Origin: Deltaproteobacteria bacterium
Lineage (GTDB): Bacteria > Desulfobacterota > Desulfobacteria > Desulfobacterales > UBA11574
Length of the DNA: 52,036 bases
Reading direction: 5' to 3'
NCBI GenBank assembly: GCA_019308685.1
Contig: JAFDHQ010000002.1
Location: forward strand, 1 to 52,036
The notes beneath the pieces are model-generated. The model did not search any database. It was not told the DNA's origin and worked only from the letters and a program-made list of their open reading frames with translations. Of this stretch, positions 29,540 through 45,282 are shown piece after piece. Position 1 is the stretch's first letter. Each line of letters starts with the position of its first letter. The translations under genes and the position numbers were made by a program.

Positions 29540-29555
29540 TGGCCTGAAAATTGCT
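29540..29555 (+). promoter_or_regulatory. Sigma54 (-24/-12) promoter candidate upstream of the first pilin gene
   Basis: TGGCCTGAAAATTGCT has exact TGGC-N7-TTGC spacing relative to the consensus TGGCACG-N4-TTGCW. It lies 88 nt upstream of the ATG at 29643. Confidence 0.55.
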
Positions 29556-29642: not shown

Positions 29643-30317
29643 ATGATCATCACCATGAGGAAAAGGGTAACATATTTCCCGGACAATCGAGGGTTTACAT
29701 TGATAGAGATGGCCATTGTGCTGATCATTATCGGTATTATCATCGGGGCGGTGGTTAAGGGCAAAGACCTGATACGAAGCGCGGAACAGAAGAAGATTTA
29801 TACGAAATATCTGAATGGGTGGCGGACGGGTTATGCCAACTTCTATGACCGAACCGGAAAACGTCTGGGTGATTTTTATGATGAATTGGCTTCAGCAGAA
29901 GGACAGGATGGAAAAGCGGACACCGATAATGGCCATGACGGAAATGTCAGCGATATCGAACGAAAATATCTGAAGACAGGGGATCCGCTGGGAACCGATT
30001 TCAGAGGGTTGGACGATGTCGGCCTTTCGGCACCTTCAACCAACAGCGGTAATTGTTTTGAATACACATACACGGATAAAGATGGCAGCGGTCACACCCT
30101 GTCTGTTGCATTTAAATATGACCGAAAGGACAAATACAATTACATGTGGATTGACGGGGTTCCCAATGAATTGGGGATGGCCCTGGATACCATGATTGAC
30201 AACGAAGCGGATGGAACTTCCGGTGATTTTTTATGTTATAGCGAATCAGATACGGAAAATCAAGACTGGGGCAAGCCATCGACTGAGGTCAGCGCGCGCT
30301 GGAAAATGGATTTTTAA
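29643..30317 (+). CDS. Type IV prepilin / pseudopilin (224 aa, 17-residue leader)
   Basis: Class III signal MIITMRKRVTYFPDNRG|FTLIEMAIVLIIIGIIIGAVV (G-1, F+1, E+5). Two C-terminal Cys (GNCFEY, DFLCYS) are compatible with a D-region disulfide. RBS AAGGGGG precedes the ATG at 29643. Confidence 0.85.
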   Translation: MIITMRKRVTYFPDNRGFTLIEMAIVLIIIGIIIGAVVKGKDLIRSAEQKKIYTKYLNGWRTGYANFYDRTGKRLGDFYDELASAEGQDGKADTDNGHDGNVSDIERKYLKTGDPLGTDFRGLDDVGLSAPSTNSGNCFEYTYTDKDGSGHTLSVAFKYDRKDKYNYMWIDGVPNELGMALDTMIDNEADGTSGDFLCYSESDTENQDWGKPSTEVSARWKMDF

Positions 30318-30322
30318 AAGAT

Positions 30323-30841
30323 ATGTCGGCGATAAAAATTTTTAGATCATGTGTGATGACCGGCGTCCTTGTGATGTTGTTATTGATCGGTGGGCGTTTT
30401 TTTCTAACCGGTTACAAACGCTATGTTGTTAATCAGAACAAAAAGGCGGTATTGACCCGTCGTGCAAATCTTCTGAATCAACAGCAAAGTGAAAGAAAAC
30501 AAAAAATGCATCATATTTTTAGAGTTAACCGTTTTGTAAATAATGCAAAATTGTTGGGATTGGAAAAAAGGAGATGGGCGGTTTACCATGTCGACATACA
30601 GGATGCGGTAACCTTCACGGAGATGAAAAGAAATTTAATGCAGTGTACCAATAGTGCCTCCCGTTATTTCAGGCCGGTCTCTTTTCATATTAAATCGTTA
30701 AAAGCGACCCATAATAATGCAGGAATTGGCAATAAGAATGAGACATCTGAAATGCTTTTTAAAAATAAGACAGGGGATATTTTAATGACTCTCAAAGGCG
30801 CATTTGTCGTCAGGGAAGAGCCAATAACCAATGATAACTGA
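30323..30841 (+). CDS. Bitopic membrane protein of unknown family (possible PilO/GspM/MshJ-like assembly component)
   Basis: One N-terminal TM (VMTGVLVMLLLIGGRFFL), then a basic coiled segment and a roughly 90-aa domain. The call rests on position in the cluster only. Confidence 0.4.
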   Translation: MSAIKIFRSCVMTGVLVMLLLIGGRFFLTGYKRYVVNQNKKAVLTRRANLLNQQQSERKQKMHHIFRVNRFVNNAKLLGLEKRRWAVYHVDIQDAVTFTEMKRNLMQCTNSASRYFRPVSFHIKSLKATHNNAGIGNKNETSEMLFKNKTGDILMTLKGAFVVREEPITNDN

Positions 30842-30865
30842 TTAATAATGGATGATAATCAATAA

Positions 30866-32161
30866 ATGATAAATGATAAAAGACAATTTGCTATTGAGCT
30901 GGATGGGGTTTTATATCACTTATCGGAAAGTCGGCTTAAACAGATTGATGACCTGAATAAAATAAAAGGTGAATTTCGGTTTGTCTCTGATATGCAGGAG
31001 GTTGTTTCCAGAACCATGACCGTTGAAGCACCGGCTAAATATGCGGAATTTGTGGTTCGCAAACGACTTCAAGAATCGGGTGATTTTGATGAGCCGGTAA
31101 CGGTACTTACACACTGGAAAAAGAAGAGAGAAAAGAACACTTGCGATATATTTTTCACTGCGCTCCCTACCCGACGATATCACGCCTACCTCGAGAAGAT
31201 CCGGGGAAATGAAGACGGAGTCATGGCGGTTCCTCTATATTCATTTCTTTATAACATTCTTAAACAAATTCGTACAGAAGATCCGGTTGCAGTCGTATTC
31301 CAGCATGGTAGATTTGCTGACTTGATTATTGGCAAAAAAAAGCAGGTCTACTATTCCAATCGATGCGTAGCATTCGACATGAGTCGTGAGCAGATAGCGA
31401 CACTTTGGGATGCCGTTCGTGCGGACATACAGACCGCTCAGACAGAAAACGGAATAAAGATTAACAAGGTGTTTCAGCTAAACTGGATCGACAGTGGAGA
31501 TTGTTCGGACTGGGCTGAAAAAGGGGAATATGAATCCTACCATTTGGAAGAAGAATCCATATCTTTTAACAATGAAACCTATCATAATTCCTTTTCAAAC
31601 GCCATAAAAAGTCGATCTGGAAACCACGGGATTTCACCGGTAATAGAGAAAATCTGTTTTTTCACACAGAAATGGGCGATGTCGTTGAATATTCTGCTTT
31701 TTGTCTTCTTGCTGGCGGTTTTGGGCGGATATTTAATATGCCAGAAAAAATCAGAACTGCTTGAGAAAGAATTAAAGCAGCTGAATCAGCAAATAGCGGG
31801 ATTTCAGACCGAGTCGTCTTTGGCCACCATTCCCATAAAAAAGTATAAAGAGACCGTCGGCTTTATAAAAGACCTGGCATATTGCAAAAATTCACCTTCA
31901 TATCTAACTGTCGTGAGCGACGTTACGAATGGTCTTTCACCGGACATGGAAACAGAAATCTTTAAAATTGATTATTCACCTGGCAGCATGACGTTAGAAA
32001 TATTCGGACGGATCACATCGACTTTTGACTTTGCACATAAAGGATATCAGCAATTTGTCTCTTTTATGAAATCCAAGGGATATGCCGTGGTGGAAAATAG
32101 ATTTGATACGGATATCGACAACTCAAAATTTCTTGTCAGATTCACGAAGAGGATCGGATGA
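30866..32161 (+). CDS. GspL / MshI (PilM-PilN fusion)-like assembly protein
   Basis: About 270-aa cytoplasmic domain, a single TM (WAMSLNILLFVFLLAVLGGYLIC), a coiled coil (ELLEKELKQLNQQIAGFQ) and a roughly 100-aa periplasmic domain. The topology matches GspL/MshI. Sequence similarity was judged by eye only. Confidence 0.5.
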   Translation: MINDKRQFAIELDGVLYHLSESRLKQIDDLNKIKGEFRFVSDMQEVVSRTMTVEAPAKYAEFVVRKRLQESGDFDEPVTVLTHWKKKREKNTCDIFFTALPTRRYHAYLEKIRGNEDGVMAVPLYSFLYNILKQIRTEDPVAVVFQHGRFADLIIGKKKQVYYSNRCVAFDMSREQIATLWDAVRADIQTAQTENGIKINKVFQLNWIDSGDCSDWAEKGEYESYHLEEESISFNNETYHNSFSNAIKSRSGNHGISPVIEKICFFTQKWAMSLNILLFVFLLAVLGGYLICQKKSELLEKELKQLNQQIAGFQTESSLATIPIKKYKETVGFIKDLAYCKNSPSYLTVVSDVTNGLSPDMETEIFKIDYSPGSMTLEIFGRITSTFDFAHKGYQQFVSFMKSKGYAVVENRFDTDIDNSKFLVRFTKRIG

Positions 32162-32685
32162 AAAGAAAATATCATGGGCTGATATCAATCGTTATTATCG
32201 CTATCCTACTGGTTCCAACGGCGATTTACGCGGTTTATTTTTCTCAGGTTTCCGTGGGCATAGATACCATCGGTTTAACGAAAAATTCACCTGAATTCAC
32301 CGTTCCCGATCAGGCCGTTATTAAAGAGATCTCCCATCTCGAGAAAGAGATGATTCATCTTGTCAACCCCGTAGAATCGGAATCGATAACAGATCGGAAA
32401 ATTCGTTTCTGGCAGTATTCGGATCAATATTATGGTCAGCATACAACAACCGATCGGGGAAATGAAAATGTTAATTCTAAAACAGCATACGCCTTAACCT
32501 TTACATTTGCGTCAGGTGAAAAAAAGTTTTGTATCATAGATGGATCTTTTTATACTCAAAGCGCCGATCTTCCTGACGGCGGAAAAATAATAAAAATAGA
32601 ACCGGGCAGGGTATGGGTGAAAAAAGGAGACGTAACGAAATGGATATTGCTCCCTGAAACTACGAAATGGGGAGAAATGCGATAA
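32158..32685 (+). CDS. PilP / MshK / GspC-like periplasmic protein
   Basis: N-terminal TM. The C-terminal FCIIDGSFYTQSADLPDGGKIIKIEPGRVWVKKGD resembles the PilP/GspC HR-domain pattern. ATGA overlap with the upstream gene. Confidence 0.45.
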   Translation: MKRKYHGLISIVIIAILLVPTAIYAVYFSQVSVGIDTIGLTKNSPEFTVPDQAVIKEISHLEKEMIHLVNPVESESITDRKIRFWQYSDQYYGQHTTTDRGNENVNSKTAYALTFTFASGEKKFCIIDGSFYTQSADLPDGGKIIKIEPGRVWVKKGDVTKWILLPETTKWGEMR

Positions 32686-32812
32686 TTATACCATGACTTC
32701 ACGATTTTATACATCGATTCCAAACCAGCGATAACATTTTCAAAAAGCTAAAGGGTTACGAAAACCCCTATTCTATTTGGTGAGTAAAACAATACATAAT
32801 GCGGGAGTACAT

Positions 32813-34312
32813 ATGAAAAAATTGAATATTATATTAGGGATTGTTTTCTCGATCATTATTTTCGGCTGTGCGGAGAGAGCTCCTAACCTCAAAACATTAT
32901 CACTTCAGACAACTCAAGATCATATTAAGTCCGAATCTGAACAACTGGATGCGGCACAGAAAGAATTTATTCCCAGCTTGGAAAGGGTTTCGCCTCGTGT
33001 GATTCATGAAAAACCCGTTATGCCGCTTTACGACCCTTTGGAAGACCATACCGTTTCCTTTTCTATGATCAATGAAGATCTCAAAGTGATTCTTTACTCC
33101 CTGTCTCAGTCCGTAGGCATGAACCTTATCATTGATCCTGTCATCACTCTTGAGGAAAAACAGCTTACCCTTAATTTTCAAAACGTCTCGGCATCCACCG
33201 TTTTGAGAGAGATACTCAACACCTATGATCTTTATTATGAAATACATGGGAATATTATCCGCATCCGTCCGTTTAAAGAACAGATGTTCAGTCTCGATTT
33301 TCTGGATACCAGAATTAATACCAATTTTAATGTGGGCGGAGACGTGCTCGGTGCGTCCGAGGAAACCACCAGCGGGTTAAAAGGTAAATTTGAACTTTCC
33401 GGTCAGGCAGCCAAACAGGGCAATGACTATGATGTGATCGAGCAAATGATAACTCGGATCATTTCAAAAGACGGAAAATATTCTCTGAACCGGCTGTCCG
33501 GAAGTCTATATGTAAAGGATACACCGGCGATTATCCGATCCATTTCCAAACTCATCAATCATTTTAAAAGGATGTTGTCCAGACAGATACTTATTGAAGC
33601 CAGAATTATCGAGGTCGGACTCTCGGACAAATATGAATATGGTATCGACTGGAGTGTACTGAGAGACGAGGCGGCGTCATTAACAACAAAAACCAACGTT
33701 GCATGGTCATTGGGTTCCGGACTGGTCTTAAGTCATGAAAATAATGAGGTGTCCATTGATTCGGCCATGGATGCGCTGGAGACGTTTGGAAAAGCAAAGG
33801 TTGTGTCTAACCCGAGTATACGCGTCAAACATGGAAAACCGGCACTAATCAGTGTTGGGACCTCCTTTACATACAAAAAAACTGTGGAGACGACGCGCGA
33901 AGTCACTTCGGGTACTGACAGAGAAATTACAGATGTTGAAGTGTCAACCGTATTTGACGGGCTTATTTTGGGGGTTATTCCCTTTATCGGAGAAAATCAA
34001 AGAATTTCCCTGCTGATTAATCCCATTAACAGTTCCGTGAATCGAGAAAGTCTTGAACCGAAAAGTGTCGGAGGAGGGAGTCAGGAGATATCCTTGCCTG
34101 AAGTTAGAATTAAAGAGATGAGCACGACCATTGAGCTTGAGGATGGAGATGTCGTGGTGCTGGGGGGTCTGATCGACGACATTCAAACGACGCAGGAAGC
34201 CGGGGTGCCCATTTTGTCAAGACTGCCGATTCTCGGCTATCTTTTTAAAAATGAATTAAAAAGCGTGGAGTCAAAGGAACTGGTTATTATTTTAAGTGTA
34301 AAATTGGTATGA
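32813..34312 (+). CDS. Secretin (MshL/PilQ/GspD family), predicted lipoprotein
   Basis: Lipobox SIIIFGC after MKKLNIILGIVF. Secretin core RQILIEARIIEV, AKVVSNPSIRVKHGKPALISVG and VVVLGGLI...GVPILSRLPILGYLF. RBS GGGAG precedes the ATG at 32813. Confidence 0.88.
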   Translation: MKKLNIILGIVFSIIIFGCAERAPNLKTLSLQTTQDHIKSESEQLDAAQKEFIPSLERVSPRVIHEKPVMPLYDPLEDHTVSFSMINEDLKVILYSLSQSVGMNLIIDPVITLEEKQLTLNFQNVSASTVLREILNTYDLYYEIHGNIIRIRPFKEQMFSLDFLDTRINTNFNVGGDVLGASEETTSGLKGKFELSGQAAKQGNDYDVIEQMITRIISKDGKYSLNRLSGSLYVKDTPAIIRSISKLINHFKRMLSRQILIEARIIEVGLSDKYEYGIDWSVLRDEAASLTTKTNVAWSLGSGLVLSHENNEVSIDSAMDALETFGKAKVVSNPSIRVKHGKPALISVGTSFTYKKTVETTREVTSGTDREITDVEVSTVFDGLILGVIPFIGENQRISLLINPINSSVNRESLEPKSVGGGSQEISLPEVRIKEMSTTIELEDGDVVVLGGLIDDIQTTQEAGVPILSRLPILGYLFKNELKSVESKELVIILSVKLV

Positions 34313-35286
34313 GCGTCATATTTAAGACATTAAAAAAGCTTAAAACCGAATCTGCAGATCGGGGAAAAAGCAGAAAAAAACCAGTGCATAGAAAAAGAGT
34401 CTACTCTTTTAAAACCGTACTCAATTCTCCTTTGTCTGTCCTTTTGTTGCTTTCCGGTTTTATGGTTATTGGAGCAGGAACTCTTTACGGATATTTTCAG
34501 TTTCGTGATGCAACGGGGAAAACGGTCAAAGGTTTTTCCATATCAAACACAGAAATTCATCGGTCAACGGATGTCCGTCTTGACAGAAGCATCGAGAATA
34601 GAGGGACAGAAAGTCTGAATGGGGCGAAGCATTCCGACTCGATTCAAATTGAATATCAGCCTTCGGAGGGACAGGATCACAGCATTAAGACATTCAAAAT
34701 AAGTAAACCCGACAATGTCCAGACACCGCTCATAGTGACAAAGGAAAAAATTTCAGACGCAAAGGAATCATTTAAAAAGGATGCTTTTGCTGAAATCCAA
34801 ACCCAGAAGACAGGCAAACTTTTATCAGCAGAAGTTTTACCGGTTTCCGGCGTAGAAAAGATTTTTCTCGCAAATGCAAAGAAAAACGCAAAAATCGCTC
34901 GGCTGGTAGCGGATATCCGCTGGGAGATGCGCCACGGAAATAAAAAGCGCACCGAAAAACTTCTTGATGAACTGGCGTTGAACAAGGGTCAAAACAACAG
35001 CTATGTACTCAAGTTAAAAGCCGTCTACCATATACGCAACCAAGAATATGAACGCGCTGCAGATTTACTGAAAACAATCCTTACCAAAAATGAAAGTGAT
35101 TTAGAAGCCGGAATCAATATGGCAATTGTGGAGATCAATACCCAACAGGAGAAAGAGGCCTATCGGCGATTGGAAAAACTTCAAACCATTTATCCGGAAC
35201 ATATACGTTTGGCTGAAATAATGCAAAATTTAAGATTATTGTTCAACAAAGATCAAATCCGACGTTTCGGTCGGCATGATGGGTAA
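34309..35286 (+). CDS. TM-anchored TPR-repeat protein (MshN-like)
   Basis: Basic N-terminus with one TM. The C-terminal roughly 120 aa shows a TPR-like pattern (YVLKLKAVYHIRNQEYERAADLLKTIL...). ATGA overlap with the secretin stop. Confidence 0.55.
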   Translation: MSVIFKTLKKLKTESADRGKSRKKPVHRKRVYSFKTVLNSPLSVLLLLSGFMVIGAGTLYGYFQFRDATGKTVKGFSISNTEIHRSTDVRLDRSIENRGTESLNGAKHSDSIQIEYQPSEGQDHSIKTFKISKPDNVQTPLIVTKEKISDAKESFKKDAFAEIQTQKTGKLLSAEVLPVSGVEKIFLANAKKNAKIARLVADIRWEMRHGNKKRTEKLLDELALNKGQNNSYVLKLKAVYHIRNQEYERAADLLKTILTKNESDLEAGINMAIVEINTQQEKEAYRRLEKLQTIYPEHIRLAEIMQNLRLLFNKDQIRRFGRHDG

Positions 35287-35288
35287 GG

Positions 35289-36860
35289 GTGATGCATATG
35301 ACTACTGCTTTGGCAAAAGAAGAACAAGGCTGTCTCGATTTTTTAGGGTTATATCACAATCCTTTTCCGGTAGTTCCGGAGGAGGAAAACTTTTATTTTT
35401 CCGAACATATCCAGAAAATCCTAACTGAAATCATCTTCGGGGTTCACGCGAGAAAAGGATTCATGGTTCTAACCGGAGAAGTGGGCCTTGGCAAAACCAC
35501 CATCAGCCGAAGGATAATAAACCTTATCGAAGAAAAAGGGGTTGAGACCTCACTGGTATTTTATACCGGTTTTAAAGACGTCGAACTGATACGGGGAATA
35601 AACCGGGATTTCGGACTGACCGCAGACAGCCTCCTTTTTAGCGATCAAATGCAACTGTTATATGATTTTTTGGTTGAGAAAAATCGTTGTGGAAAAAATT
35701 GTACCATCATTATTGATGATGCACAGAATCTCGATTTTAAAAGTCTTGAACTTATCCGAATGATTTCAAACCTTGAAACCAGTGGGGAAAAACTGGTTCA
35801 AATTTTACTGGTGGGTCAACCGGAACTCATTCATTTGTTGGATTCTAAAGAACTGAGACAGCTCAGGAGTCGAATTGTTATCCAACAAGAGGTGAAAGCA
35901 CTGACACCGGAAGAACTAAAGGACTATCTTTATTTTAAACTGAATCTGGCCGGAAACAGAGGACATATCCGAATTCAAAAGACGGCTTTGAATAAAATCT
36001 ATAAACTGACCCAAGGGAATTTCAGACAGGTTAATCTGTTGATGGACAGGTGTTTGTATGTTGCGTTTCTTCACAACACATTAGAAATTAACAGAAAGAT
36101 TGTTGTCGAAGCCTTTGTTGATCTTCATCCTAAAAAACTGAAACTTCTGAAAAAGCCTCTAACCTTAATGGCATCCATTTTCATTGTGCTGTCCTTATTT
36201 GGCGGAATGGTTTACTCCGGTTTTAGCCGGGATATTTCTTCTACGTCTTCGAACATTAAAACTTATGCCACACCAAAGGATAATAGCGATCGACTGGAAT
36301 TGGGCCCCGCCAAACAAGCTTTGCAAATAACAGATCTCAATCTGGATAAAGAACCGAATGACTTGGGACAACATTCCGTTATTCCCGAGTCTGTGATTAA
36401 TTTTTTGGATGAATATAAACTTTCTAATTATCGAGACCCTTTTTTTGAAGCTTTAGAAACGGGACGGTTTCAAGAGTTAACGGAAGAGATATTCGAAAAA
36501 ACAGGATATATGTTGGTCCGACTGGATCATGTTTCAGATCACATTCAGAACGCATATGGGACCCTCAGGTATGTTTCGAACCTCATAGGCCATCAACAAT
36601 TCTATCTGTTCTGGCGTCCTCCGCTAATATTCACAAAATTTTATTATTATTATCAAGGAGAAGAGATTTTAAAACTCCAAAAGATGATGGCAAAAATTAA
36701 TCTGTATTCCGGTCTTCTCGATGGAATCGTCGGTAAAAAGCTGATGCTGGCGGTCGTGAACTATCAGGAACAGGCGGGACTTTCTGTGACCGGATATCCG
36801 GATGAAAAAACCATTTTCCTTTTATGCCATGAGCTGGAAAATCTAAAAAATGAAACATGA
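35289..36860 (+). CDS. ExeA/GspA/MshM-like AAA ATPase with a C-terminal peptidoglycan-binding domain
   Basis: Walker A GEVGLGKTT and Walker B IIIDDAQ, a central TM (LMASIFIVLSLFGGMVY), and a C-terminal PG_binding_1-like LYSGLLDGIVGKKLMLAVVNYQEQAGLSVTGYPDEKT. Confidence 0.8.
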   Translation: MMHMTTALAKEEQGCLDFLGLYHNPFPVVPEEENFYFSEHIQKILTEIIFGVHARKGFMVLTGEVGLGKTTISRRIINLIEEKGVETSLVFYTGFKDVELIRGINRDFGLTADSLLFSDQMQLLYDFLVEKNRCGKNCTIIIDDAQNLDFKSLELIRMISNLETSGEKLVQILLVGQPELIHLLDSKELRQLRSRIVIQQEVKALTPEELKDYLYFKLNLAGNRGHIRIQKTALNKIYKLTQGNFRQVNLLMDRCLYVAFLHNTLEINRKIVVEAFVDLHPKKLKLLKKPLTLMASIFIVLSLFGGMVYSGFSRDISSTSSNIKTYATPKDNSDRLELGPAKQALQITDLNLDKEPNDLGQHSVIPESVINFLDEYKLSNYRDPFFEALETGRFQELTEEIFEKTGYMLVRLDHVSDHIQNAYGTLRYVSNLIGHQQFYLFWRPPLIFTKFYYYYQGEEILKLQKMMAKINLYSGLLDGIVGKKLMLAVVNYQEQAGLSVTGYPDEKTIFLLCHELENLKNET

Positions 36861-38511
36861 TAAAAAATTAAAGCCCTTGGGTGTGGTTTTAAAGGAAAAG
36901 GGGCTTATTACAGAAGAGTATATCGGGTATGCGTTACAAGAGCAGAAGATCACCCGGGAGAAAATCGGAGAAATATTAGAGCGGCTTGGATTCGTTACCG
37001 AAAACGATATTGTTGTTGCTTTATCTGAACAGAGTGGCGTTCCCTATATTGATGTGGACACCCTTTTGCCCGAAGAAAATATTCTGAAACTTTTCAATAA
37101 AAAAATGTGTCTCAACAATATTTTTCTTCCATTTCGCAAAACAGACAATTTCCTGGAGATCGCAGCACATAATTTGATCGATGAAAAACTCGGGCAGATC
37201 ATTTCAAGACAGACAGGGCTATTACCGAAAATTTATATTTCGGAACGCAGAAAAATTATTCAAGCCATCAACAAATTTTATTATTTTCTTGAAAATCCGG
37301 TTGAAAAACTCATTGAGAAAGAAGTCTACCTTCTTTCCCAGAACGAGGAAATGGCCAGAGGGTTTGATAGTTTAATTAAACATATCTTGCATCTTGCAGT
37401 AAAGATGCGGGCCACGGATATCCATATCAAACCGATGAAACTGTCTACCAATATTGCCTTTAGAGTAGACGGCGTTATAACATCGGTCTTATCCCTGCCG
37501 GTTGCACTGAACAGAATTGTCTCCAGCCTCAAAATGAAAGCAGACATGGATATCGCCGAACAGAGACTGCCACAGGACGGTCGATTTTCGGAAATCATTT
37601 TGAACAATAATTATGATTTCAGGGTGTCCACGATTGTTTCGCCCCTGGGGGAGAGCATGGTTCTTCGCGTCCTTGCCATGGAAAGTTCTGTTATGGGATT
37701 GGAACAGCTCGGCTTCTTTAAAGAACATATCCAAACCATAGAAAAAATGTTCAATGAACCTTTCGGAATAATTTTACTCACCGGGCCCACCGGCTCCGGA
37801 AAGTCGACAACGCTCTTTTCCGGTATCAGAAGACTCAATCTTCTCCAGAAGAATACCATTACCGTTGAGGAGCCCATTGAATTCGATATCCCTTTGCTGC
37901 GGCAAACTCAAGTCAACGAAAAGGCCGGTTACACCTTTGCCAACGCTATCCGTTATTTTTTGCGCCATGATCCGGATGTCATTCTGGTGGGTGAAATACG
38001 GGATTCCGAGACGGCCGCCACTGCTGTTACCGCAGCAATCACAGGCCATCTGGTCCTTTCCACCATGCACACAAACAGTGCGGTTGGAACCATTCCCAGA
38101 TTGATGGATTTAGGTATTCGTCCTTTTTTAATTGCCGACTCCCTTGTCGGGGTGGTGAGCCAGCGACTTGTTCGCAAAATATGCGAGAACTGCAAAACTG
38201 TCTACGCTCCCTCTGAAAATGAGAAGACATATTTAAAAGATCCTGATATTAAAGAACTTTATCAAGGGAAAGGATGTGAATTATGCAGTGGATCAGGTTA
38301 TTTTGGAAGGACTTTGGTGTATGAACTCCTTACCATAGATCAGAAGCTGTCCCAGCTGATTGAGAAGGGAGCTGATTTGAGTGTTGTTTCGCAGTCGGCA
38401 AAAGAATTGGGTTTTGATGATGTTTTTGAAATCACGCGAAATAAAGTGAAACAGGGGGTAACCACAACAGAAGAAGCAACGCGCGCCTTGGGTCACATCA
38501 GACAAATTTAG
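36850..38511 (+). CDS. Type IV filament assembly ATPase (GspE/PilB/MshE family) with an N-terminal MshEN domain
   Basis: Walker A GPTGSGKST, Walker B ILVGEIRD and tetracysteine CENC...CELC. Two tandem 24-residue MshEN motifs at residues 9-32 and 38-61. Confidence 0.93.
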   Translation: MKHDKKLKPLGVVLKEKGLITEEYIGYALQEQKITREKIGEILERLGFVTENDIVVALSEQSGVPYIDVDTLLPEENILKLFNKKMCLNNIFLPFRKTDNFLEIAAHNLIDEKLGQIISRQTGLLPKIYISERRKIIQAINKFYYFLENPVEKLIEKEVYLLSQNEEMARGFDSLIKHILHLAVKMRATDIHIKPMKLSTNIAFRVDGVITSVLSLPVALNRIVSSLKMKADMDIAEQRLPQDGRFSEIILNNNYDFRVSTIVSPLGESMVLRVLAMESSVMGLEQLGFFKEHIQTIEKMFNEPFGIILLTGPTGSGKSTTLFSGIRRLNLLQKNTITVEEPIEFDIPLLRQTQVNEKAGYTFANAIRYFLRHDPDVILVGEIRDSETAATAVTAAITGHLVLSTMHTNSAVGTIPRLMDLGIRPFLIADSLVGVVSQRLVRKICENCKTVYAPSENEKTYLKDPDIKELYQGKGCELCSGSGYFGRTLVYELLTIDQKLSQLIEKGADLSVVSQSAKELGFDDVFEITRNKVKQGVTTTEEATRALGHIRQI

Positions 38512-38517
38512 ATTGGC

Positions 38518-39756
38518 ATGATGAATTACTTCAGATATAAATTGATCGCTCCCAACGGAAAGCCTTCCTCGGGCCTCATTAAACTCCCCTACCAGGATGA
38601 AATTTCTACGGCGTTATATCTGGAAAGAAACGGCAGTATGGCGATCCATGTATCCAAACTGGGGAAGCTTGCATCGCTCTTTTCGAAGTTAAGTTCGTTT
38701 AGACTCTTTAAACGACTGAAGCGCACGGATCAGGTAGAACTGCTCAATAATCTTTCTCTTCTCCTCCGATCCGGCATGCCCTTGACGACCTCACTTGAAG
38801 AAGCTGCACAAGCCACGGAACATCCCGGGCTTGCAAGCAAGGTCCAGGATATTGTGGCCGCTATCCAGGGCGGCATGTCATTTTCAGAAGCAGCAACCAA
38901 ATTCAGCGATATTTTCACGGAAACGGTGATCTGTCTTATCCGAATCGGAGAAGAGACCGGCAGACTCGATGAGATGTTAAAAGATGCATCAGATCATGTT
39001 AACCGCGTTCACACGATTATCAGTGACACCAAAAGAGCGCTTTTGTATCCGGTTTTTGTGTTTGTTTCAATAGGGTTCGGCCTGGCTTTTTGGCTTTACT
39101 ATGTGGTGCCGAAGATTCTTGAGCTTTTTAAAGAAATGAATGTTGCTCTGCCTACAATTACAGTTTATCTTTTAAAAGTATCTGATTTTTTTCAAGACTA
39201 TTTTGTTGGCTTGTTCATGGGATTTTTCCTGACCCTTGTCGGCCTGTTCGCTGCCCGAAAAGGAAGCCGGCAGTTCAGAAAAATCATCGATTGGATAATG
39301 ATCAAGCTTCCTGTCGTCGGAGCTATTGTTACGGCTTCAAATCTTGCCCATATTACAGAATACTTTTCTCTGTTAATGAAAGCCGGAATTAATATCCTGC
39401 AAGCCATAAAAATTTTAAGTGAAAGCGTTAGGAATGAAATATATCGAGACAAGCTCAGCCAAGTCCGGAAAGCCTTAAAAAAAGGGAGTAGTATTTCAGA
39501 AGCCTTTGGGGAGGCCATTGTTTTTCCGACCTTTGTTATACGGATGATAAGTGTCGGCGAAGTCAGTGGAACACTTGAAGATCAGTTGGGCCACATCTCG
39601 GGGGAATACAGTAAACGGCTGTCAAATTTAGTATCAATGATCGGAAAAATGATCGAACCCATCGTCTTGGTAGTGGCCGGTGCAATCTTTGCCGTTATTT
39701 TTTTGGCGCTGCTTCTTCCGGTTTACGATATGGTCAGTCAGGTTGGCGGCATGTAA
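38518..39756 (+). CDS. Type IV filament platform protein (GspF/PilC/MshG family)
   Basis: 412 aa with two GspF repeats (LLRSGMPLTTSLEEAA / LMKAGINILQAIKIL) and 3 TM segments. Confidence 0.9.
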   Translation: MMNYFRYKLIAPNGKPSSGLIKLPYQDEISTALYLERNGSMAIHVSKLGKLASLFSKLSSFRLFKRLKRTDQVELLNNLSLLLRSGMPLTTSLEEAAQATEHPGLASKVQDIVAAIQGGMSFSEAATKFSDIFTETVICLIRIGEETGRLDEMLKDASDHVNRVHTIISDTKRALLYPVFVFVSIGFGLAFWLYYVVPKILELFKEMNVALPTITVYLLKVSDFFQDYFVGLFMGFFLTLVGLFAARKGSRQFRKIIDWIMIKLPVVGAIVTASNLAHITEYFSLLMKAGINILQAIKILSESVRNEIYRDKLSQVRKALKKGSSISEAFGEAIVFPTFVIRMISVGEVSGTLEDQLGHISGEYSKRLSNLVSMIGKMIEPIVLVVAGAIFAVIFLALLLPVYDMVSQVGGM

Positions 39757-39842
39757 GGGGATATTTAATACCATTTGAAATGTTTATGTTTTTAATAACA
39801 AAAGTATTACAAATTATGAAAAACACATTTCATTTTTATAAA

Positions 39843-42545
39843 ATGAGTAAAAATTCAAACCCGAAAGGATTTACTCTCATTGAAATGGCGGTGGTACTGG
39901 TAATCGTGGGAATTATTATATCCATCGTGGCGACGGTTTTGCCTTCTTTGATTAAGTCTTCCAAGATCAAGAAAGCACGGTCCGTATTGGAACAAGTCGA
40001 TTATGCGATCCAGGGATATGTGGCGGCCAATGGGCGACTGCCTTTTGCGGATAAAGGAATCTCCGGGGAAGAAGATTCTGAGACACCCACGTATTTCGGG
40101 AATCTTCCTTTCATTACACTGGGTCTTTCCTCAGGCGATGATGCATGGGGTAACCGATTGAAATATGGTGTGAACGAAGATTTGACAACCACGAACGCTG
40201 GAAACCTGGGGGATGCATTAAAAACAGCATGTTCGGATGATCCGGTGAATCCTGGAAAACTTCACGTAAATATCAACGGCACATTGACACATATGGCGTA
40301 TATTATGGTCAGCGGCGGCTCCAAAGATGAGGATGGCGTCGGCGGGTTTTTCGATGGATTAAACCGGTTTGACGATGCGATTTATGATGATCCAAACCGG
40401 ATCATTGAATCCGGTACTTATGATGACCTGATTATTGCGAAAGCATGCACCGTATTGGCCGGGAGCCAAGGCTACGGTTCAGGAGACGGTAACGGTGATG
40501 ATAACAGCGATGGAACGTCGGAAATCTGTGATACCGATGAAGATGACGATGGTGACGGATATGTTAACTGTGAGGATCAGGATTGTTTCAATGACCCCAT
40601 ATGCGGATCAGGGGAGAATGTTCGGATTATGACCACTTCTATTCCGTCCGGCCATGTAAACAGCAGCTATTCAACGACGATCCATGCAACCGGAGGTACC
40701 ACACCCTATGAATGGACCTTGACCGACGACGGTAATTTTTCCAACCTGTTTCTTCACACCTATCTCGGCCAATTGTCGGGAACACTCGATCAGTGTCCCG
40801 GCACGTATACCATTTCGGTCCAGGTGCAAGACTCTGATACAGACAATGATCCGGATCCTGATCCCAGCAATTTCACCCTACAGGTAACCAGCAACCTGTT
40901 CGTGTCGCGAACCAGCGGGTCCAGCGTAGACATTACATGGAACAGCCCAACCCAGCAGGAAACCTTCCAGGCCAACGGCGGGCATCTTGGAGATATTCAA
41001 TGGACCCTGGATACCGGCGGCGCCACCGGTTTTACGGTATCTTCCACAGGCAGTAATACGTGTACCATCAAAAAAAGCGGCACCACTGATGAGGGGACGT
41101 ATACTTTTACACTAACCGCCACAGATTCCAGCTGTTCAAGCAATACGGCCCAGATAATCCTGAGCATAACCGTGTTGTCCAGCGCCGGTGGTGCACCCTA
41201 TACGGTGGATTTGTCTGCCGAATGGCACATGGACGAATGCAGCTGGGACGGCACATCCGGAGAGGTTCAGGACTCCGGGGGAGAAGGCCTTGATGGGACG
41301 GCGAAAAATGGTGCAACACCCGTGGGTTCCGGACAAATTTGTAATGCAGGATATTTTGACGGGACCAATGATTATTTGGACATGGGCGACATCTTGAACA
41401 ATGTTTTCGGCACCGGCAGTAATTCGTTTACTGTGGCTGCATGGATCCGGCCCTTTTCCTTAAGCGGCTCTCAAACAAATCATAGGACCCAAAACTGTTT
41501 CGTGGCCAAAGCCTCAGACTCCGATAACGACAATTTTGAAATGGGTGTCAACACCAATGGCACCATTCATGTGTATATTGATACCTCAGGACAGGACAAG
41601 TACGCTGACTTTGGTGTGGCCGACAGTATCGGTGTGGGGGTCTGGAGTTTTGTGGTTGTGACGTATGACAGTGGTGTTGTGGCTGTGACCATTAACGGCA
41701 GTCGATACGAAAACACAAGCACCTGGAGTGGCGGAGGGAATCTGGATACCGCTTCAGGCAGCCTGTTTAGCATTGGCAGTTCCCAGCATATCGACAACTA
41801 CTTTTTCGGTAAGATCGATGAAGTCATGGTCTATTCCAAGGCGTTGACCGATGCAGAGATAACCAGCCTCTACACCTTGACCCACACCTGTTCAGGATCG
41901 TGCTACACCGGGCCAACGGCCGTTTATTACATGGACGAGAGCATCTGGAACGCGGGGACGCCTGGTGACGTCAAGGATTCATCCGGTAATGGCTATCATG
42001 GTACACCCTATGGAAGTGCGGCGATCAATACCGCTGACAGCCATATCGGGAATTCCGGGGAATTTACCAGCAGCAACGGCACCATCGATATCACAGGTCT
42101 TCCGGTCTCAACCGCTTCCGGAGATCAAACCACGGTGACGTTTTGGATGAAATGGCTGGGCGGTAACAGCCAGATGCCCATCGGGTGGACCTCCTATGAT
42201 CTCTGGTTCGAAGGTGACCGTTTTGGTTTTAATACCGCGGGGGGAGATATATACGGATTTACCGGAGCATCTGCAAAGCTTGCAAATAACTGGCACCATA
42301 TTGCTGCGATATTTACCAACAGCGGCACAACCCAAAACAGTCTTTTCATCGACGGTGTGGAACAGTCCCTGAGCACGGTTCGAGGATCGGGTCATGGAAA
42401 CCGGACGGTGGGTTCAAGTTTCAGGATCAGCGGATGGATGAATAATTCAAGTTATAAGTTAAACGGCCTGATCGATGAACTCAGAATATACAACAGAGGT
42501 CTGTCTGCCAGCGAAGTTTCGGACGACAAGGATTTAACCCATTAA
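39843..42545 (+). CDS. Giant prepilin-adhesin fusion: class III signal and pilin head, Cys/Asp-rich module, Ig-like repeats and two LamG (concanavalin-like) domains
   Basis: MSKNSNPKG|FTLIEMAVVLVIVGIIISIV. CDTDEDDDGDGYVNCEDQDCFNDPIC at about 40470-40615. He_PIG-like IPSGHVNSSYSTTIHATGGTTPYEWTL. LamG-like blocks at about 41195-41900 and 41915-42545 (FDGTNDYLDMG ... GKIDEVMVYSKALTDAEI; NGLIDELRIYNRGLSASEV). The start is ambiguous among 39780, 39816 and 39843. Confidence 0.85.
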   Translation: MSKNSNPKGFTLIEMAVVLVIVGIIISIVATVLPSLIKSSKIKKARSVLEQVDYAIQGYVAANGRLPFADKGISGEEDSETPTYFGNLPFITLGLSSGDDAWGNRLKYGVNEDLTTTNAGNLGDALKTACSDDPVNPGKLHVNINGTLTHMAYIMVSGGSKDEDGVGGFFDGLNRFDDAIYDDPNRIIESGTYDDLIIAKACTVLAGSQGYGSGDGNGDDNSDGTSEICDTDEDDDGDGYVNCEDQDCFNDPICGSGENVRIMTTSIPSGHVNSSYSTTIHATGGTTPYEWTLTDDGNFSNLFLHTYLGQLSGTLDQCPGTYTISVQVQDSDTDNDPDPDPSNFTLQVTSNLFVSRTSGSSVDITWNSPTQQETFQANGGHLGDIQWTLDTGGATGFTVSSTGSNTCTIKKSGTTDEGTYTFTLTATDSSCSSNTAQIILSITVLSSAGGAPYTVDLSAEWHMDECSWDGTSGEVQDSGGEGLDGTAKNGATPVGSGQICNAGYFDGTNDYLDMGDILNNVFGTGSNSFTVAAWIRPFSLSGSQTNHRTQNCFVAKASDSDNDNFEMGVNTNGTIHVYIDTSGQDKYADFGVADSIGVGVWSFVVVTYDSGVVAVTINGSRYENTSTWSGGGNLDTASGSLFSIGSSQHIDNYFFGKIDEVMVYSKALTDAEITSLYTLTHTCSGSCYTGPTAVYYMDESIWNAGTPGDVKDSSGNGYHGTPYGSAAINTADSHIGNSGEFTSSNGTIDITGLPVSTASGDQTTVTFWMKWLGGNSQMPIGWTSYDLWFEGDRFGFNTAGGDIYGFTGASAKLANNWHHIAAIFTNSGTTQNSLFIDGVEQSLSTVRGSGHGNRTVGSSFRISGWMNNSSYKLNGLIDELRIYNRGLSASEVSDDKDLTH

Positions 42546-42614: not shown

Positions 42615-42928
42615 ATGAAGGTGCATTTAAAATTTGATAAATCGGATCCTAAGGACACACGTTTTACAGTGGTTATTGATGACGCGCCTTGTGGACGGCT
42701 GTCCATGACGACCGAAGATGCCGTTAGAGTGGCTGATATCGTCAAATCAGGGTGCTCACAGTATCAATGCGATTTTGAATCTTCCGGCAAGTTATACAGA
42801 TCCGAAAGTTTTGTGGTCTGGCATAAAGTTTTGTGGTCTGGCATAAAAGGAGTGGTAAGGAAAGAAGGAGCGGACAGGATCGAAGGAAGAGCCAAGATCG
42901 AAGAAGCGGTAAAGACAGGAGAAATTAA
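42615..42928 (+). CDS. Small protein with a C-terminal DRR-repeat tail. Its reading frame is broken by a 20-bp tandem duplication, so as sequenced it reads through into the next gene.
   Basis: RBS GGGAGAG precedes the ATG at 42615. Removing one 20-bp copy gives ...VVWHKRSGKERRSGQDRRKSQDRRSGKDRRN* with the stop at 42926-42928. Confidence 0.5.
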
Positions 42929-42938
42929 CGGAGGGCTT

Positions 42939-43426
42939 ATGGAAATCAAGACGGTCAAGATTGAAAAAACTGATGATTTGAATATGATCTTAGGACATTC
43001 TCACTTTATCAAGACGGTCGAAGATGTCTATGAGGCCATTGTCAATACCGTGCCGGGAGCGAAATTCGGTCTGGCATTTTGTGAAGCTTCGGGTCCGTGT
43101 CTGGTGAGATATACCGGCACAGATAATGATTTGATTGAATTGGCAAAAAAAAATGCCTATAACCTTTCGGCCGGTCACAGTTTTATCATTTTTATGAAAG
43201 ACATGTTATGTTTCCCGTAAATGTTTTGAATACGATCAAGAACGTTCCGGAAGTCTGCAGAATTATTTGCGCCACGGCCAATCCTGTGGAAGTCTTGCTT
43301 GTAGAAACAGAGCTGGGACGAGGAATCGTGGGTGTTATTGACGGATTTCGCTCAGAAGGAATTGAAACCGAAGAGGATATTACGGAACGAAAGGAGTTTT
43401 TGCGGACCATCGGGTATAAGCAGTAA
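42939..43426 (+). CDS. Adenosine-specific kinase family protein (PF04008-like), frameshifted by a 5-bp tandem duplication
   Basis: [57 protein letters not shown]...[11 protein letters not shown] continues as [29 protein letters not shown]...GVIDGF in the other frame. RBS GGAGGG precedes the ATG at 42939. Confidence 0.8.
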
Positions 43427-45190: not shown

Positions 45191-45282
45191 TTGCTGAACT
45201 CGGAGCCCACTAAAAAATGTTGATTTTTACAACATATAATAATAAGCATAAGAAATCAAATGATAATCATAGAGGTGATTCA

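Follow-up and report, generated by a model that had tools for sequence, protein, structure and literature searches.

A giant modular type IV pilin with two C-terminal LamG modules in an MSHA-type gene cluster of Desulfobacterales

Modular pilins, in which the N-terminal IPR012902 motif is joined to one or more additional domains not tied to type IV pilus biology, have been catalogued across genomes and are considered "likely tip exposed" (Raynaud et al., 2021; PMC8179133). In Dataset S1 of this catalogue IPR012902-PF13385, with 229 proteins, leads the modular-pilin architectures in number, IPR012902-PF13385-PF13385 accounts for 9 proteins and ranks in the top 15 of the dataset, and one of the representatives listed in Fig. 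8 for the 15 most widespread architectures is a protein of a Desulfobacterales bacterium (Raynaud et al., 2021; PMC8179133). For PilC of S. sanguinis, composed of pilin, Ig-like and ConA-like lectin modules, the structure was solved, glycan binding was found and the location at the tip was modelled (Shahin et al., 2023; PMC9934059). TcpB of V. cholerae and CofB of ETEC, each the one large minor pilin of its system, combine Glu5 with flexible linkers and start assembly at the filament tip (PMC5207764). MshQ of V. cholerae, with about 1200 residues, is predicted to dock with a C-terminal β-strand on MshP within the MshD/O/P complex (PMC13533445).

How does a prepilin of some 900 residues from an uncultured member of the Desulfobacterales compare with these systems? 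The gene lies within a stretch of 52,036 nucleotides of contig JAFDHQ010000002.1, all of which was analysed and is called the window in the following. Its product is probably a giant modular type IV pilin in which two C-terminal LamG modules are presented by a conserved carrier, as a low-abundance adhesin at the filament tip. The carrier is made up of a class III signal, an α1 helix with Glu5, a GspG-like head, a Gly-rich linker, a Cys-rich knot of the Ca-binding type and two Ig-like spacers. A preliminary description of this DNA had the anatomy essentially right, from the prepilin signal and head over the acidic Cys-rich motif to the Ig-like spacers and the twin LamG domains. The novelty it implied largely falls away, as the architecture is common and already characterised (Raynaud et al., 2021; PilC). 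Pilins of such a design have been catalogued since 2021, and the giant pilin extends the catalogued architecture without a new principle; the one point that may go beyond it is the presence of just two pilins in the cluster.

Reading frame and domain anatomy

The giant pilin is encoded by an uninterrupted open reading frame on the plus strand (39780..42545) with in-frame ATGs at 39780, 39816 and 39843. Translation from 39843 yields 900 amino acids, and cleavage at G/FTLIEM (the slash marks the cleavage site) a mature protein of 891 amino acids and a 94-kDa subunit. The proposed prepilin of roughly this length is real: the frame has 196 homologues with 35–89% identity and dN/dS values of 0.04–0.26, every domain being under purifying selection, and it is therefore not a chance frame. 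Judging from the sequence, ATG 39816 is the likely start, giving an 18-residue leader, MKNTFHFYKMSKNSNPKG, with 39780 and 39843 as alternatives. The product called for P0001, the closest homologue, starts with MKNTFHFF, equivalent to a start at 39816, which is the choice of a gene caller and not proof of the start site; leaders in other relatives comprise 8–20 residues. Direct reading confirmed the earlier remark on three in-frame ATGs without clear Shine-Dalgarno sequence, a good one being absent before each of them. A search of the 70-nt gap 3' of the gene revealed no intrinsic terminator. The G+C content of the gene is 50% as compared to about 41–43% in the adjoining 2-kb windows, which mostly reflects amino-acid composition (GC2 0.47), GC3 being modestly raised in the cargo domains. 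From N- to C-terminus the order is α1 with Glu5, head, Gly-rich linker, four-Cys acidic motif, two Ig-like domains and two Laminin_G_3 domains:

39816..39869, plus strand: class III leader peptide with Gly at its end (direct reading of the sequence)
39870..40031, plus strand: α1 helix of the mature pilin, filament-assembly interface (N_methyl, TIGR02532, AF2)
39882-39884, plus strand: codon of Glu5, within α1
40032..40469, plus strand: globular head, residues 64-209, GspG-like (AF2, weak TIGR01710 match)
40470..40526, plus strand: disordered Gly/Ser/Asp-rich linker, residues 210-228 (AF2 pLDDT below 50)
40527..40604, plus strand: acidic four-Cys motif CxxDxDDDGDGxxxCxDxDCxxxxxC, putative Ca2+-binding mini-domain
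40626..40892, plus strand: Ig-like domain 1, residues 262-350, He_PIG type (AF2 β-sandwich, pLDDT ~85-92)
40899..41174, plus strand: Ig-like domain 2, residues 353-444, PKD/K319L-like (AF2 β-sandwich, pLDDT >90)
41211..41882, plus strand: LamG domain 1, residues 457-680 (Laminin_G_3 over 506-673)
41910..42545, plus strand: LamG domain 2, residues 690-900, plus stop codon (Laminin_G_3, AF2 jelly roll)

The class III signal reads KG/FTLIEMAVVLVIVGIIISIV, with predicted cleavage between G9 and F10 of the F10-TLIEM segment (numbering from 39843). Signal and hydrophobic helix hold up in both models applied, with 30.2 bits for Pfam N_methyl (PF07963; cutoff 21.2) and 30.1 bits for TIGR02532 (cutoff 16.3). 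Glu5 of the mature protein is present (F1-T-L-I-E5, corresponding to E14) and conserved to at least 90% among 36 homologues, and pairwise identity over residues 10-37 is 79% among the 36 aligned members of the family. AF2 predicts the α1 helix over residues 12-63 (52 residues), followed by strands that complete an α/β head, with pLDDT values of 73-82 for the pilin module; in the full-length model, scored in blocks of 10 residues, most values lie at about 76-90 from residue 41 to 160 and at 64-84 beyond. The head carries a conserved SGGxKDxDG..FFDG loop and a Cys130/Cys202 pair. Its proposed likeness to GspG is weakly supported: TIGR01710 (GspG) aligns with residues 8-108 at 42.6 bits and E 5.5e-11, below its cutoff of 88.85, and the best Foldseek matches are the GspG-type pseudopilins EpsG, PulG and XcpT, with CofA and PilE also among the matches, none of them significant (E of 0.45 or higher throughout). 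Stand-alone versions of the pilin module of about 220 amino acids also occur. Combining N_methyl with He_PIG/PKD-like and two Laminin_G_3 domains, the protein is a modular pilin in the sense of the published definition.

Between head and cargo, the 19-residue linker (residues 210-228) is the least conserved of all segments and variable in length; Glu5 and a long flexible linker of this kind would also permit incorporation along a filament shaft. The acidic Cys-rich motif that follows, CDTDEDDDGDGYVNCEDQDCFNDPIC (residues 229-254), is modelled by AF2 with low confidence (about 55), and all 36 sequences compared retain C229, D234, D236, D238, C243, D245, D247, C248 and C254. It aligns Cys-for-Cys with the C-rich region of teneurin-4 (7plp_A; E 5e-4 for the single sequence, 1.6e-5 for the profile). 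The stretch had been likened to MopE repeats, a label that was dropped because PF11617 gave no match at relaxed thresholds in hmmscan, neither with the whole protein at E<=1 nor with the isolated motif at E<=10; a teneurin-type C-rich motif describes it instead. Of the two or three Ig-like modules expected, AF2 models two, as sandwiches at 262-350 and 353-444, and no third. The He_PIG assignment of the first, which contains the segment ATGGTTPYEWTL (residues 282-293), exceeds the PF05345 cutoff of 24 in a scan of the isolated domain (27.2 bits) and falls below it within the whole protein (18.4). The second matches K319L-like_PKD at the borderline (25.8, cutoff 27).

Laminin_G_3 (PF13385) covers two stretches with E 7.1e-40 and 137.1 bits (cutoff 27.6) and the AF2 models of the twin domains reach a pLDDT of 82; both characteristic tails, IDEVMVYSKALTDAEI (658-673) and IDELRIYNRGLSASEV (877-892), are in place as first described. 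In Foldseek searches LamG1 resembles domain 4 of AbnA (5hon_A, TMt 0.78), laminin LG4-5, neurexin LNS and TeNT/BoNT Hc domains, the laminin LG and neurexin matches having E values of about 1e-11. Pentraxin profile matches fall on profile positions 773-931, corresponding to LamG2, for which dN/dS is 0.07-0.13, and further LamG matches are CBM-like N-domains of sialidases. The ligand-contacting loops of the LamG domains vary within the family. Besides glycans, the ligands of LamG domains include proteins, lipids and steroids. TafC, a subunit of haloarchaeal Tat-fimbriae, came up for LamG1 in NCBIfam and was set aside (40.7 bits against a cutoff of 410, only residues 527-685); it is irrelevant to membership.

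The MSHA-type cluster and a second, small pilin

The giant pilin gene is the last of a cluster that begins with a small pilin, followed by three unknown genes, MshL, a TPR protein, an MshM-like protein, MshE and GspF/MshG:

29540..29555, plus strand: σ54-type -24/-12 element TGGCCTGAAAATTGCT, some 90 nt ahead of the gene for the small pilin
29643..30317, plus strand: small prepilin, first gene of the cluster (G/FTLIEM, N_methyl 32.6 bits)
30323..32685, plus strand: three conserved genes of 172, 431 and 175 amino acids, TM segments in all, syntenic with the secretin
32777..34312, plus strand: MshL-type secretin (TIGR02519 pilus_MshL 258.1, cutoff 250.2; Secretin and STN domains)
34309..36860, plus strand: TPR protein (MshN-like position), then an ATPase with AAA_22 and peptidoglycan-binding domains (MshM/ExeA-like; Pfam)
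36850..38511, plus strand: MshE-type assembly ATPase with predicted N-terminal c-di-GMP-binding domain (T2SSE E 5e-114)
38518..39756, plus strand: GspF/MshG-type platform protein (T2SSF E 4.9e-51)

An MshL secretin and an MshE ATPase with MshEN/c-di-GMP domain thus share one cluster, which marks it as MSHA-type; the ATPase scores 43.1 for MshEN (PF05157; cutoff 23.1) and 55.9 for the c-di-GMP motif family NF053729 (cutoff 38). Pfam further identifies TPR_19 in the TPR protein and AAA_22 (E 3e-21) and PG_binding_1 in the MshM/ExeA-like ATPase. The genes of 172, 431 and 175 amino acids are without Pfam or NCBIfam match and syntenic with the secretin in all loci reaching that far; from their position they are presumed to encode components of the inner-membrane assembly platform, equivalent to MshI/J/K. 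The stop codon of the GspF/MshG gene ends 23 nt before ATG 39780.

Co-occurrence of pilin-LamG fusions with MshE-type ATPases, earlier proposed as a check, is seen as linkage in more than 15 loci of metagenome-assembled genomes labelled Desulfobacterales or "delta proteobacterium", including loci with inverted giant pilin gene. mshG adjoins the giant pilin gene in each locus with sufficient flank, and mshE, mshM and mshL are nearby. The giant pilin gene is co-directional with the cluster in L001-L007, L014 and L015 and convergent in L011-L013, L018-L020 and L026.

The small pilin (mature form 207 amino acids, 23 kDa) is a candidate for the major pilin. Its gene is preceded by a good Shine-Dalgarno sequence (AGGGGG) 8 nt upstream, and at 11 loci, with identities as low as 50%, it opens the order pilS-g172-g431-g175-mshL. 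The σ54-like site upstream of it is a lead only; the pattern has 3 matches in the window with 0.87 expected and 6 of 100 shuffled sequences reach 3; the remaining two matches lie inside open reading frames (12269-13558 and 13707-14483). σ70-like promoter matches across the cluster are not enriched over shuffled sequences. A σ54-like site and a strong Shine-Dalgarno sequence for the small pilin and no Shine-Dalgarno sequence for the giant pilin would fit a split into major and minor subunit. As regards common descent of the two pilins, BLASTP finds nothing shared between the head of the giant pilin and the small pilin beyond the GFTLIEM signal, and a paralogous relation was rejected.

Only two class III signals, those of the small and the giant pilin, are present in the window, and searches of all six frames with strict and relaxed class III regexes found no further pilin there. 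In 26 related loci, with flanks of up to 10 kb, such signals are limited to the giant pilin or its tandem paralogue (L008 and L009). Neither a prepilin peptidase (peptidase A24) nor a retraction ATPase is encoded within the 52-kb window, and the set of MshB/A/C/D and MshO/P and a non-pilin MshQ were not found in the cluster; they may lie elsewhere in the genome.

Carrier, cargo and position in the filament

Among 36 aligned members, identity over all pairs is 79% for α1N, 53-56% for the Ig-like domains and 39-43% for the LamG domains: the carrier is more conserved than the cargo. In three close relatives (L004, L005 and L007) the core of LamG1 is just 10-32% identical while the flanks mostly retain 70-94%, a pattern in the alignments that indicates cassette-like swapping of LamG1. 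Two proteins (P0110 and P0113) combine the same carrier with a different, non-lectin repeat cargo, forms of 1550-1830 amino acids have the Ig-Ig-LamG-LamG unit duplicated, and L008 and L009 contain the giant pilin gene in two tandem copies.

How could such a subunit act? The giant pilin gene would close an MSHA-type type-IV-filament operon and be transcribed together with it, and a prepilin peptidase encoded elsewhere would cut at G/F and methylate F1. The MshE/MshG/MshL machine, probably activated by c-di-GMP, would take in the bulky subunit first, which for this reason is proposed to sit at the filament tip, where it would prime polymerisation of the small 23-kDa pilin from the head of the operon. 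Stalk and lectin part, about 680 residues, would jut from the tip and bind a ligand, with glycans or polysaccharides of particles, matrix or partner cells as the probable targets, and specificity would be varied through exchange of LamG1 or of whole cargo modules. If minor pilins of the I/J/K type lie elsewhere in the genome, the giant pilin would be one member of a larger tip complex and not the primer. It is conceivable, but on balance doubtful, that these Desulfobacterales operate true two-pilin machines in which one giant pilin replaces both the MshD/O/P initiation complex and the MshQ adhesin. If true, the giant pilin would both prime assembly and be the adhesin, with Glu5 kept and no PilT nearby it might also trigger retraction as TcpB does, and the LamG1 cassette and swappable cargo would constitute an exchangeable specificity module.

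The preliminary description had placed the adhesin in the tip or shaft of the filament. Covalent attachment of lectin-type modules to a pilin remains the best-supported reading, and the shaft is less likely than display at the tip. As a shaft subunit, the giant pilin would form the main block or be interspersed with the small pilin, and LamG domains would coat the filament along its length. Retention of a nearly invariant Glu5, the extreme conservation of α1N, the 19 disordered residues between head and cargo and the two tandem copies at L008 and L009 could be read in this way, and a location in the filament body is allowed for modular pilins with a flexible linker (Raynaud et al., 2021; PMC8179133). 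However, about 680 residues of cargo per subunit would be hard to pack given an axial rise per subunit of about 8.4 Å in TCP (PMC5207764), the giant pilin gene is last in the operon and lacks a Shine-Dalgarno sequence whereas the small pilin gene has a strong one and the σ54-like site, and the known large modular pilins PilB, PilC, TcpB and CofB are low-abundance tip subunits (PMC8179133; PMC9934059; PMC5207764), all of which makes a shaft location very unlikely. The machine itself could also be read as a type II secretion or pseudopilus-like apparatus, with the giant protein remaining an inner-membrane protein or part of a short pseudopilus and the LamG and Ig-like domains acting in the periplasm or at the secretin, in capture of polysaccharide or substrate or in plugging or opening of the channel, or with the C-terminal part being released. 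The head is indeed closer to GspG than to type IVa pilins (TIGR01710 E 5.5e-11; Foldseek matches EpsG and PulG), the cluster includes a GspF-like protein and an ExeA/GspA-like ATPase with peptidoglycan-binding domain, and the window is without retraction ATPase. Yet the secretin passes the MshL equivalog cutoff and fails that of GspD (103 vs 351), the assembly ATPase bears the MshEN domain and c-di-GMP motif typical of MSHA pili, homologues of GspC, I, J, K, L and M were not found in the cluster and every GspG score stays below the family cutoff, so that we consider a secretion machine quite unlikely.

Even with the same architecture and location, the LamG modules need not be lectins and might recognise a protein, a lipid or a mineral surface, for instance a receptor on a syntrophic partner or on kin, in which case LamG1 exchange would set partner or kin specificity rather than glycan specificity. 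Consistent with this are structural neighbours that bind proteins and gangliosides (neurexin LNS, pentraxins, clostridial neurotoxin Hc), the allele-like replacement of LamG1 among close relatives and the non-lectin repeat cargo that some relatives carry instead. Against it stand the best sequence and structure matches, which are carbohydrate-associated (AbnA domain 4 with ligand, CBM-like N-domains of sialidases), and the sole characterised pilin with a ConA-like module, which binds glycans (PilC; PMC9934059). A non-glycan ligand therefore appears unlikely, and a glycan-binding tip adhesin is the reading preferred here.

Relation to known pilins and MSHA systems

Like the proteins in the catalogue of Raynaud et al., the giant pilin begins with a class III signal and pilin module, to which Laminin_G_3 domains are added. 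That catalogue is purely bioinformatic and offers neither genomic context nor structure or function for the Desulfobacterales lineage; it does not describe cassette exchange, the Cys-rich knot and Ig spacers or the association with an MSHA-type machine. A literature search combining LamG, type IV pili, Desulfo and adhesin returned zero papers. Functional work on modular pilins was found for the Gram-positive pathogen S. sanguinis and for the T4b pili of enteric pathogens, to which the giant pilin family would add a diderm, environmental, MSHA-type example. It may account for the attachment of uncultured relatives of sulfate reducers to particles, polymers or partner cells. The clear division into carrier and cargo and the natural cargo swaps could make the family a model of how type IV filaments gain binding specificities, and two-pilin operation, if true, would offer a simple system for filament priming in the T4a/MSHA/T2SS branch.

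PilC shares the pilin-Ig-lectin design and a retained Glu5 and is a minor pilin. It differs in belonging to a monoderm T4aP with five pilins, in requiring PilA for stability, in having one lectin module and in its size (52.8 kDa). PilC is missing from the best 50 Foldseek matches and from the 60 PDB profile matches listed of 65, and the relation is therefore one of analogy within a fold superfamily rather than demonstrated orthology. TcpB and CofB systems likewise pair one large pilin with one major pilin and have flexibly linked β-domains, Glu5 and no retraction ATPase, but they are of the T4b class, with a C-terminal β-repeat and β-sandwich and without LamG, whereas the Desulfobacterales machine is MshL/MshE-type. 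With GspG, the N-terminal 100 residues align (E 5.5e-11) and the pseudopilins EpsG, PulG and XcpT are the neighbours of the head; in contrast, the score remains at 42.6 vs 88.85, the giant head is about 70 residues longer, and 680 residues of cargo are added.

The MSHA system of V. cholerae has a machine of the same type, with MshL, MshE with c-di-GMP domain, MshG, an MshM-like protein, a TPR protein and a large, tip-associated protein of adhesin type at the end of the locus, although equivalents of its MshB/C/D/O/P are missing from the Desulfobacterales cluster. A Psychromonas locus (L023) considered as comparator for MshQ is uninformative on the idea of an MshQ fusion because its LamG match sits in a frameshifted gene, convergent to four MSHA-like pilin genes, and its only NCBIfam match is a weak one to TafC. 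The contrast drawn earlier with MshQ as a separate, non-pilin protein is fair in view of its predicted docking on MshP (PMC13533445): MshQ is without pilin signal, whereas the giant protein is itself a pilin, with a class III signal and a pilin module of its own.

Domain anatomy and conservation of the giant pilin

The ORF that encodes the giant pilin, the large modular prepilin at the end of an MSHA-type gene cluster, runs unbroken on the + strand from 39780 to 42545 and offers three in-frame ATGs (39780, 39816 and 39843). A convincing Shine-Dalgarno sequence is absent upstream of all three, the sole AGGGGA lying 17-18 nt 5' of the first ATG, which bears out what the preliminary description had said of the translation start. 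The called start of the closest homologue is equivalent to 39816 and gives an 18-residue leader, and leaders of 8-20 residues are found in other relatives; the mature protein is the same whichever ATG is used. Counted from ATG 39843 the protein has 900 residues, and its predicted cleaved form is a Gly/Ser/Thr/Asp-rich polypeptide of 891 aa (94.2 kDa, pI 4.2). All motifs quoted in the preliminary description are present in the sequence. They are listed here with the parts of an AlphaFold2 model built from a 36-sequence alignment (mean pLDDT 82).

Features of the giant pilin (+ strand, residues counted from ATG 39843)
Residues 9-10 on: class III cleavage signal G9|F10TLIEM, then hydrophobic helix (sequence)
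Residues 12-63: alpha1 helix (AlphaFold2)
Up to about residue 209: alpha/beta head (AlphaFold2)
Residues 210-228: disordered Gly-rich linker (AlphaFold2)
Residues 229-254: acidic Cys-rich stretch (sequence)
Residues 229-256: Cys-rich knot, low confidence (AlphaFold2)
Residues 262-350 and 353-444: two Ig-like sandwiches (AlphaFold2)
Residues 282-293: ATGGTTPYEWTL (sequence)
Residues 457-680 and 690-900: two LamG jelly rolls (AlphaFold2)
Residues 658-673 and 877-892: two LamG tails, IDEV/L...Y(S/N)..L(T/S)..E (sequence)

The proposed class III signal is confirmed by Pfam N_methyl (30.2 bits vs a cutoff of 21.2), and the twin LamG domains by two Laminin_G_3 stretches (E 7.1e-40) that coincide with two jelly rolls in the model. 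Foldseek matched the LamG parts in the PDB to domain 4 of the arabinanase AbnA (5hon_A, TMt 0.78), laminin LG4-5, neurexin LNS and clostridial neurotoxin Hc, in agreement with a PDB-sequence profile search. Two or three Ig-like modules with a He_PIG match had been suggested, and of these two are modelled and a third is not. Scanning the whole protein against Pfam yielded sub-threshold Ig-type matches at residues 265-438 (He_PIG, K319L-like PKD, Y_Y_Y), and when scanned alone Ig1 exceeds the He_PIG gathering score (27.2 vs 24) and Ig2 is borderline PKD-like (25.8 vs 27). The head, which gives a weak T2SSG match in Pfam, aligns with the GspG model (residues 8-108, E 5.5e-11) at a score far under the family cutoff, and when residues 1-212 are modelled separately (pLDDT 73) the nearest solved structures, namely EpsG, PulG, XcpT, CofA and PilE, all have E>0.4; 'GspG-like' therefore denotes resemblance, not membership.

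Four Cys and five Asp of the Cys-rich stretch are invariant across the family. The stretch had been likened to MopE-type repeats, but PF11617 is undetected even at E<=10, and it is the C-rich region of teneurin-4 that aligns instead, Cys for Cys (E 5e-4 with the single sequence, 1.6e-5 with the profile). Since the C-rich region of teneurins is a Ca2+-binding element, it is reasonable to regard the stretch as a putative structural Ca2+ knot.

A search of ~5.8 billion proteins found 196 relatives, many of them full-length with 35-89% identity, which come in two size forms of roughly 900 and roughly 1550 aa and which their sources name only 'prepilin-type N-terminal cleavage/methylation domain-containing protein' or 'LamG domain-containing protein'. 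Genome matches are nearly all MAGs of Desulfobacterales, Desulfobacteraceae or 'delta proteobacterium', the nearest (93% identity) having a fully syntenic neighbourhood. Pairwise dN/dS, computed with six relatives, lies between 0.04 and 0.26 for each domain; by these sequence comparisons the gene is conserved and under selection. Its G+C content (39843-42545) is 50% vs ~41-43% in the 2-kb windows on either side; GC2 (0.47) is an amino-acid composition effect, and GC3 is raised to 0.55-0.58 only in the Ig domains and LamG cargo, with 0.47 in the pilin module.

The MSHA-type cluster and its linkage to the giant pilin

The giant pilin gene, the last of a co-directional cluster, starts 23 nt downstream of the stop codon of the preceding GspF/MshG-type gene.

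Genes of the cluster, in order (+ strand)
29643-30317: small prepilin (pilS), G|FTLIEM, mature form 207 aa
Second to fourth: three conserved membrane proteins without family matches (172, 431 and 175 aa; g172, g431 and g175)
Next: secretin, over the MshL equivalog cutoff (258.1 vs 250.2)
Next: TPR protein
Next: AAA_22 and peptidoglycan-binding protein, MshM/ExeA-like
Next: MshE-type ATPase with MshEN and c-di-GMP-binding motif (55.9 vs 38)
Next: GspF/MshG-type platform protein
Last: giant pilin

The small pilin gene has a strong Shine-Dalgarno sequence and, ~90 nt upstream, a candidate sigma54-type -24/-12 element (TGGC-N7-TTGC; TGGCCTGAAAATTGCT, 29540-29555). This pattern has three matches in the window vs 0.87 expected, a number reached in 6 of 100 shuffles, and the other two lie inside ORFs as judged by coordinates. 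Strict and relaxed six-frame searches of the 52-kb window found only two class III signals, those of the giant and the small pilin. Prepilin peptidase, PilT and further pilins are absent from the rest of the window, where the remaining genes are housekeeping genes (glycine cleavage, ABC and TRAP transporters, FolD, SecA, ClpA, GuaA). A few kb downstream of the cluster with its MshEN c-di-GMP-binding ATPase lie a stand-alone PilZ-domain protein (45217-45666, +) and a CheX phosphatase (46143-46607, -); a PilZ gene is also found near the cluster in the related locus L026. Just 3' of the giant pilin, an adenosine-specific kinase gene is split into ORFs 42615-43220 and 43208-43426 by a 5-bp insertion at 43195-43215 relative to an intact, 95%-identical gene in locus L001, apparently a tandem ATGTT duplication (GACATGTTATGTT vs GA-----TATGTT); the alternatives are a pseudogene created by frameshift and an error in the assembly. 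Elsewhere, a single ORF of 883 aa (6689-9340, +), opposite gcvH and gcvP, joins an aminomethyltransferase (GCV_T, residues 9-251) to a serine hydroxymethyltransferase (SHMT, 436-837), a fusion that appears unusual.

In every related locus with sufficient flank the giant pilin gene is the neighbour of mshG and of the other machine genes. The gene is co-directional with the machine in L001-L007, L014 and L015 and convergent to it in L011-L013, L018-L020 and L026, where protein identity is 38-40%. Since adjacency outlasts inversion, gene order argues for functional coupling of giant pilin and machine. In the order pilS-g172-g431-g175-mshL the small pilin is always first, down to 50% identity. Other pilin genes are lacking in the related loci except for a tandem second giant pilin in two Desulfobacterales MAGs (L008, 4326-6965 and 7033-locus end; L009, 273-2909 and 2984-locus end). 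The alpha1 helices of these tandem pilins are near-identical, and the pairs suggest a repertoire of alternative tip adhesins.

Exchange of cargo on a conserved carrier

In the family, the N-terminal part of alpha1 (alpha1N) has an all-pairs identity of 79%, the Cys-rich knot 64%, the Ig domains 53-56% and the head 49%; the LamG domains reach only 39-43%. A profile search of 1.84 billion proteins with the pilin module gave 81 representative clusters at E<=1e-30, with lengths from ~200 to 1829 aa, including complete stand-alone modules of ~220 aa that end exactly at the start of the Gly-rich linker. Relatives of 1550-1830 aa repeat the Ig-Ig-LamG-LamG block. In two further relatives, P0110 and P0113, the pilin, the knot and both Ig domains are followed not by LamG but by an array (residues ~470-800) in which a ~46-residue repeat (FDTSxGYEPxIIHVDGxVYAIAYRG..DGFLKTVEIAxDGQIT) occurs 7-8 times; the repeat is without Pfam annotation and may form a beta-propeller. 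The LamG1 core (residues ~510-660; window 41350-41830) shares only 10-32% identity with its counterparts in the close relatives of L004, L005 and L007, against mostly 70-94% in the segments on either side, and dN is 0.64-0.71 in the core vs 0.07-0.15 in the flanks. This divergence indicates a cassette-like replacement of LamG1. Such a module pattern is as expected of an adhesin-presentation platform with exchanged specificity modules.

Proposed role and known systems

Judged by anatomy and linkage, by expression signals, strong for the small and poor for the giant pilin, and by published precedent, the giant pilin is most likely a low-abundance modular pilin at the filament tip. Its processing, location, ligand and c-di-GMP control we infer: the prepilin would be cut at G|F and would be the first subunit that the MshE/MshG/MshL machine loads, to be borne at the distal end of a filament built of the 23-kDa small pilin, with the Ca-knot and two Ig domains as stalk and the two LamG domains as binding head. 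Modular pilins as a class are described as likely to be exposed at the tip (Raynaud et al. 2021, PMC8179133). TcpB and CofB are precedents for such a position, being single large minor pilins, flexibly linked and Glu5-bearing, that start assembly at the tip; TcpB is the retraction trigger too (PMC5207764).

Given the disparity in expression signals between the two pilins, we consider a shaft-decorating subunit unlikely. A T2SS-like role, periplasmic or on a short pseudopilus, would suit the resemblance of the head to GspG and is improbable beside the MshL-type secretin and MshE-type ATPase. Within the tip reading, a non-glycan ligand of the LamG domains, whose structural matches include neurexin LNS as well as an arabinanase domain, seems unlikely. 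The PilC protein of S. sanguinis, which combines a pilin with Ig-like and ConA-like lectin modules, is a glycan binder and forms the pilus cap with PilA and PilB (PMC9934059).

The contrast drawn with MshQ is a fair one, as MshQ of V. cholerae (~1200 residues) is not a pilin and its predicted docking partner is MshP (PMC13533445). The pilin-LamG design itself is already known: Raynaud et al. 2021 list IPR012902-PF13385 in their Dataset S1 as the most frequent modular-pilin architecture (229 proteins), IPR012902-PF13385-PF13385 is inside the top 15 with 9 proteins, and the representatives of the 15 most widespread architectures in their Fig. 8 include Desulfobacterales bacterium A0A1V1WSE4 (PMC8179133), possibly the twin-PF13385 entry, with which order and architecture are consistent. 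Moreover, PilC has established the functional paradigm of pilin, Ig-like and lectin modules experimentally. To this the present work adds the MSHA-type genomic setting, the presence of only two pilins in the cluster, signs that cargo and LamG1 are exchanged, and the conservation of the Cys-rich knot. A bolder and less likely reading is of an MSHA-type machine that truly runs on two pilins, the giant pilin standing in for the MshD/O/P/Q tip complex.
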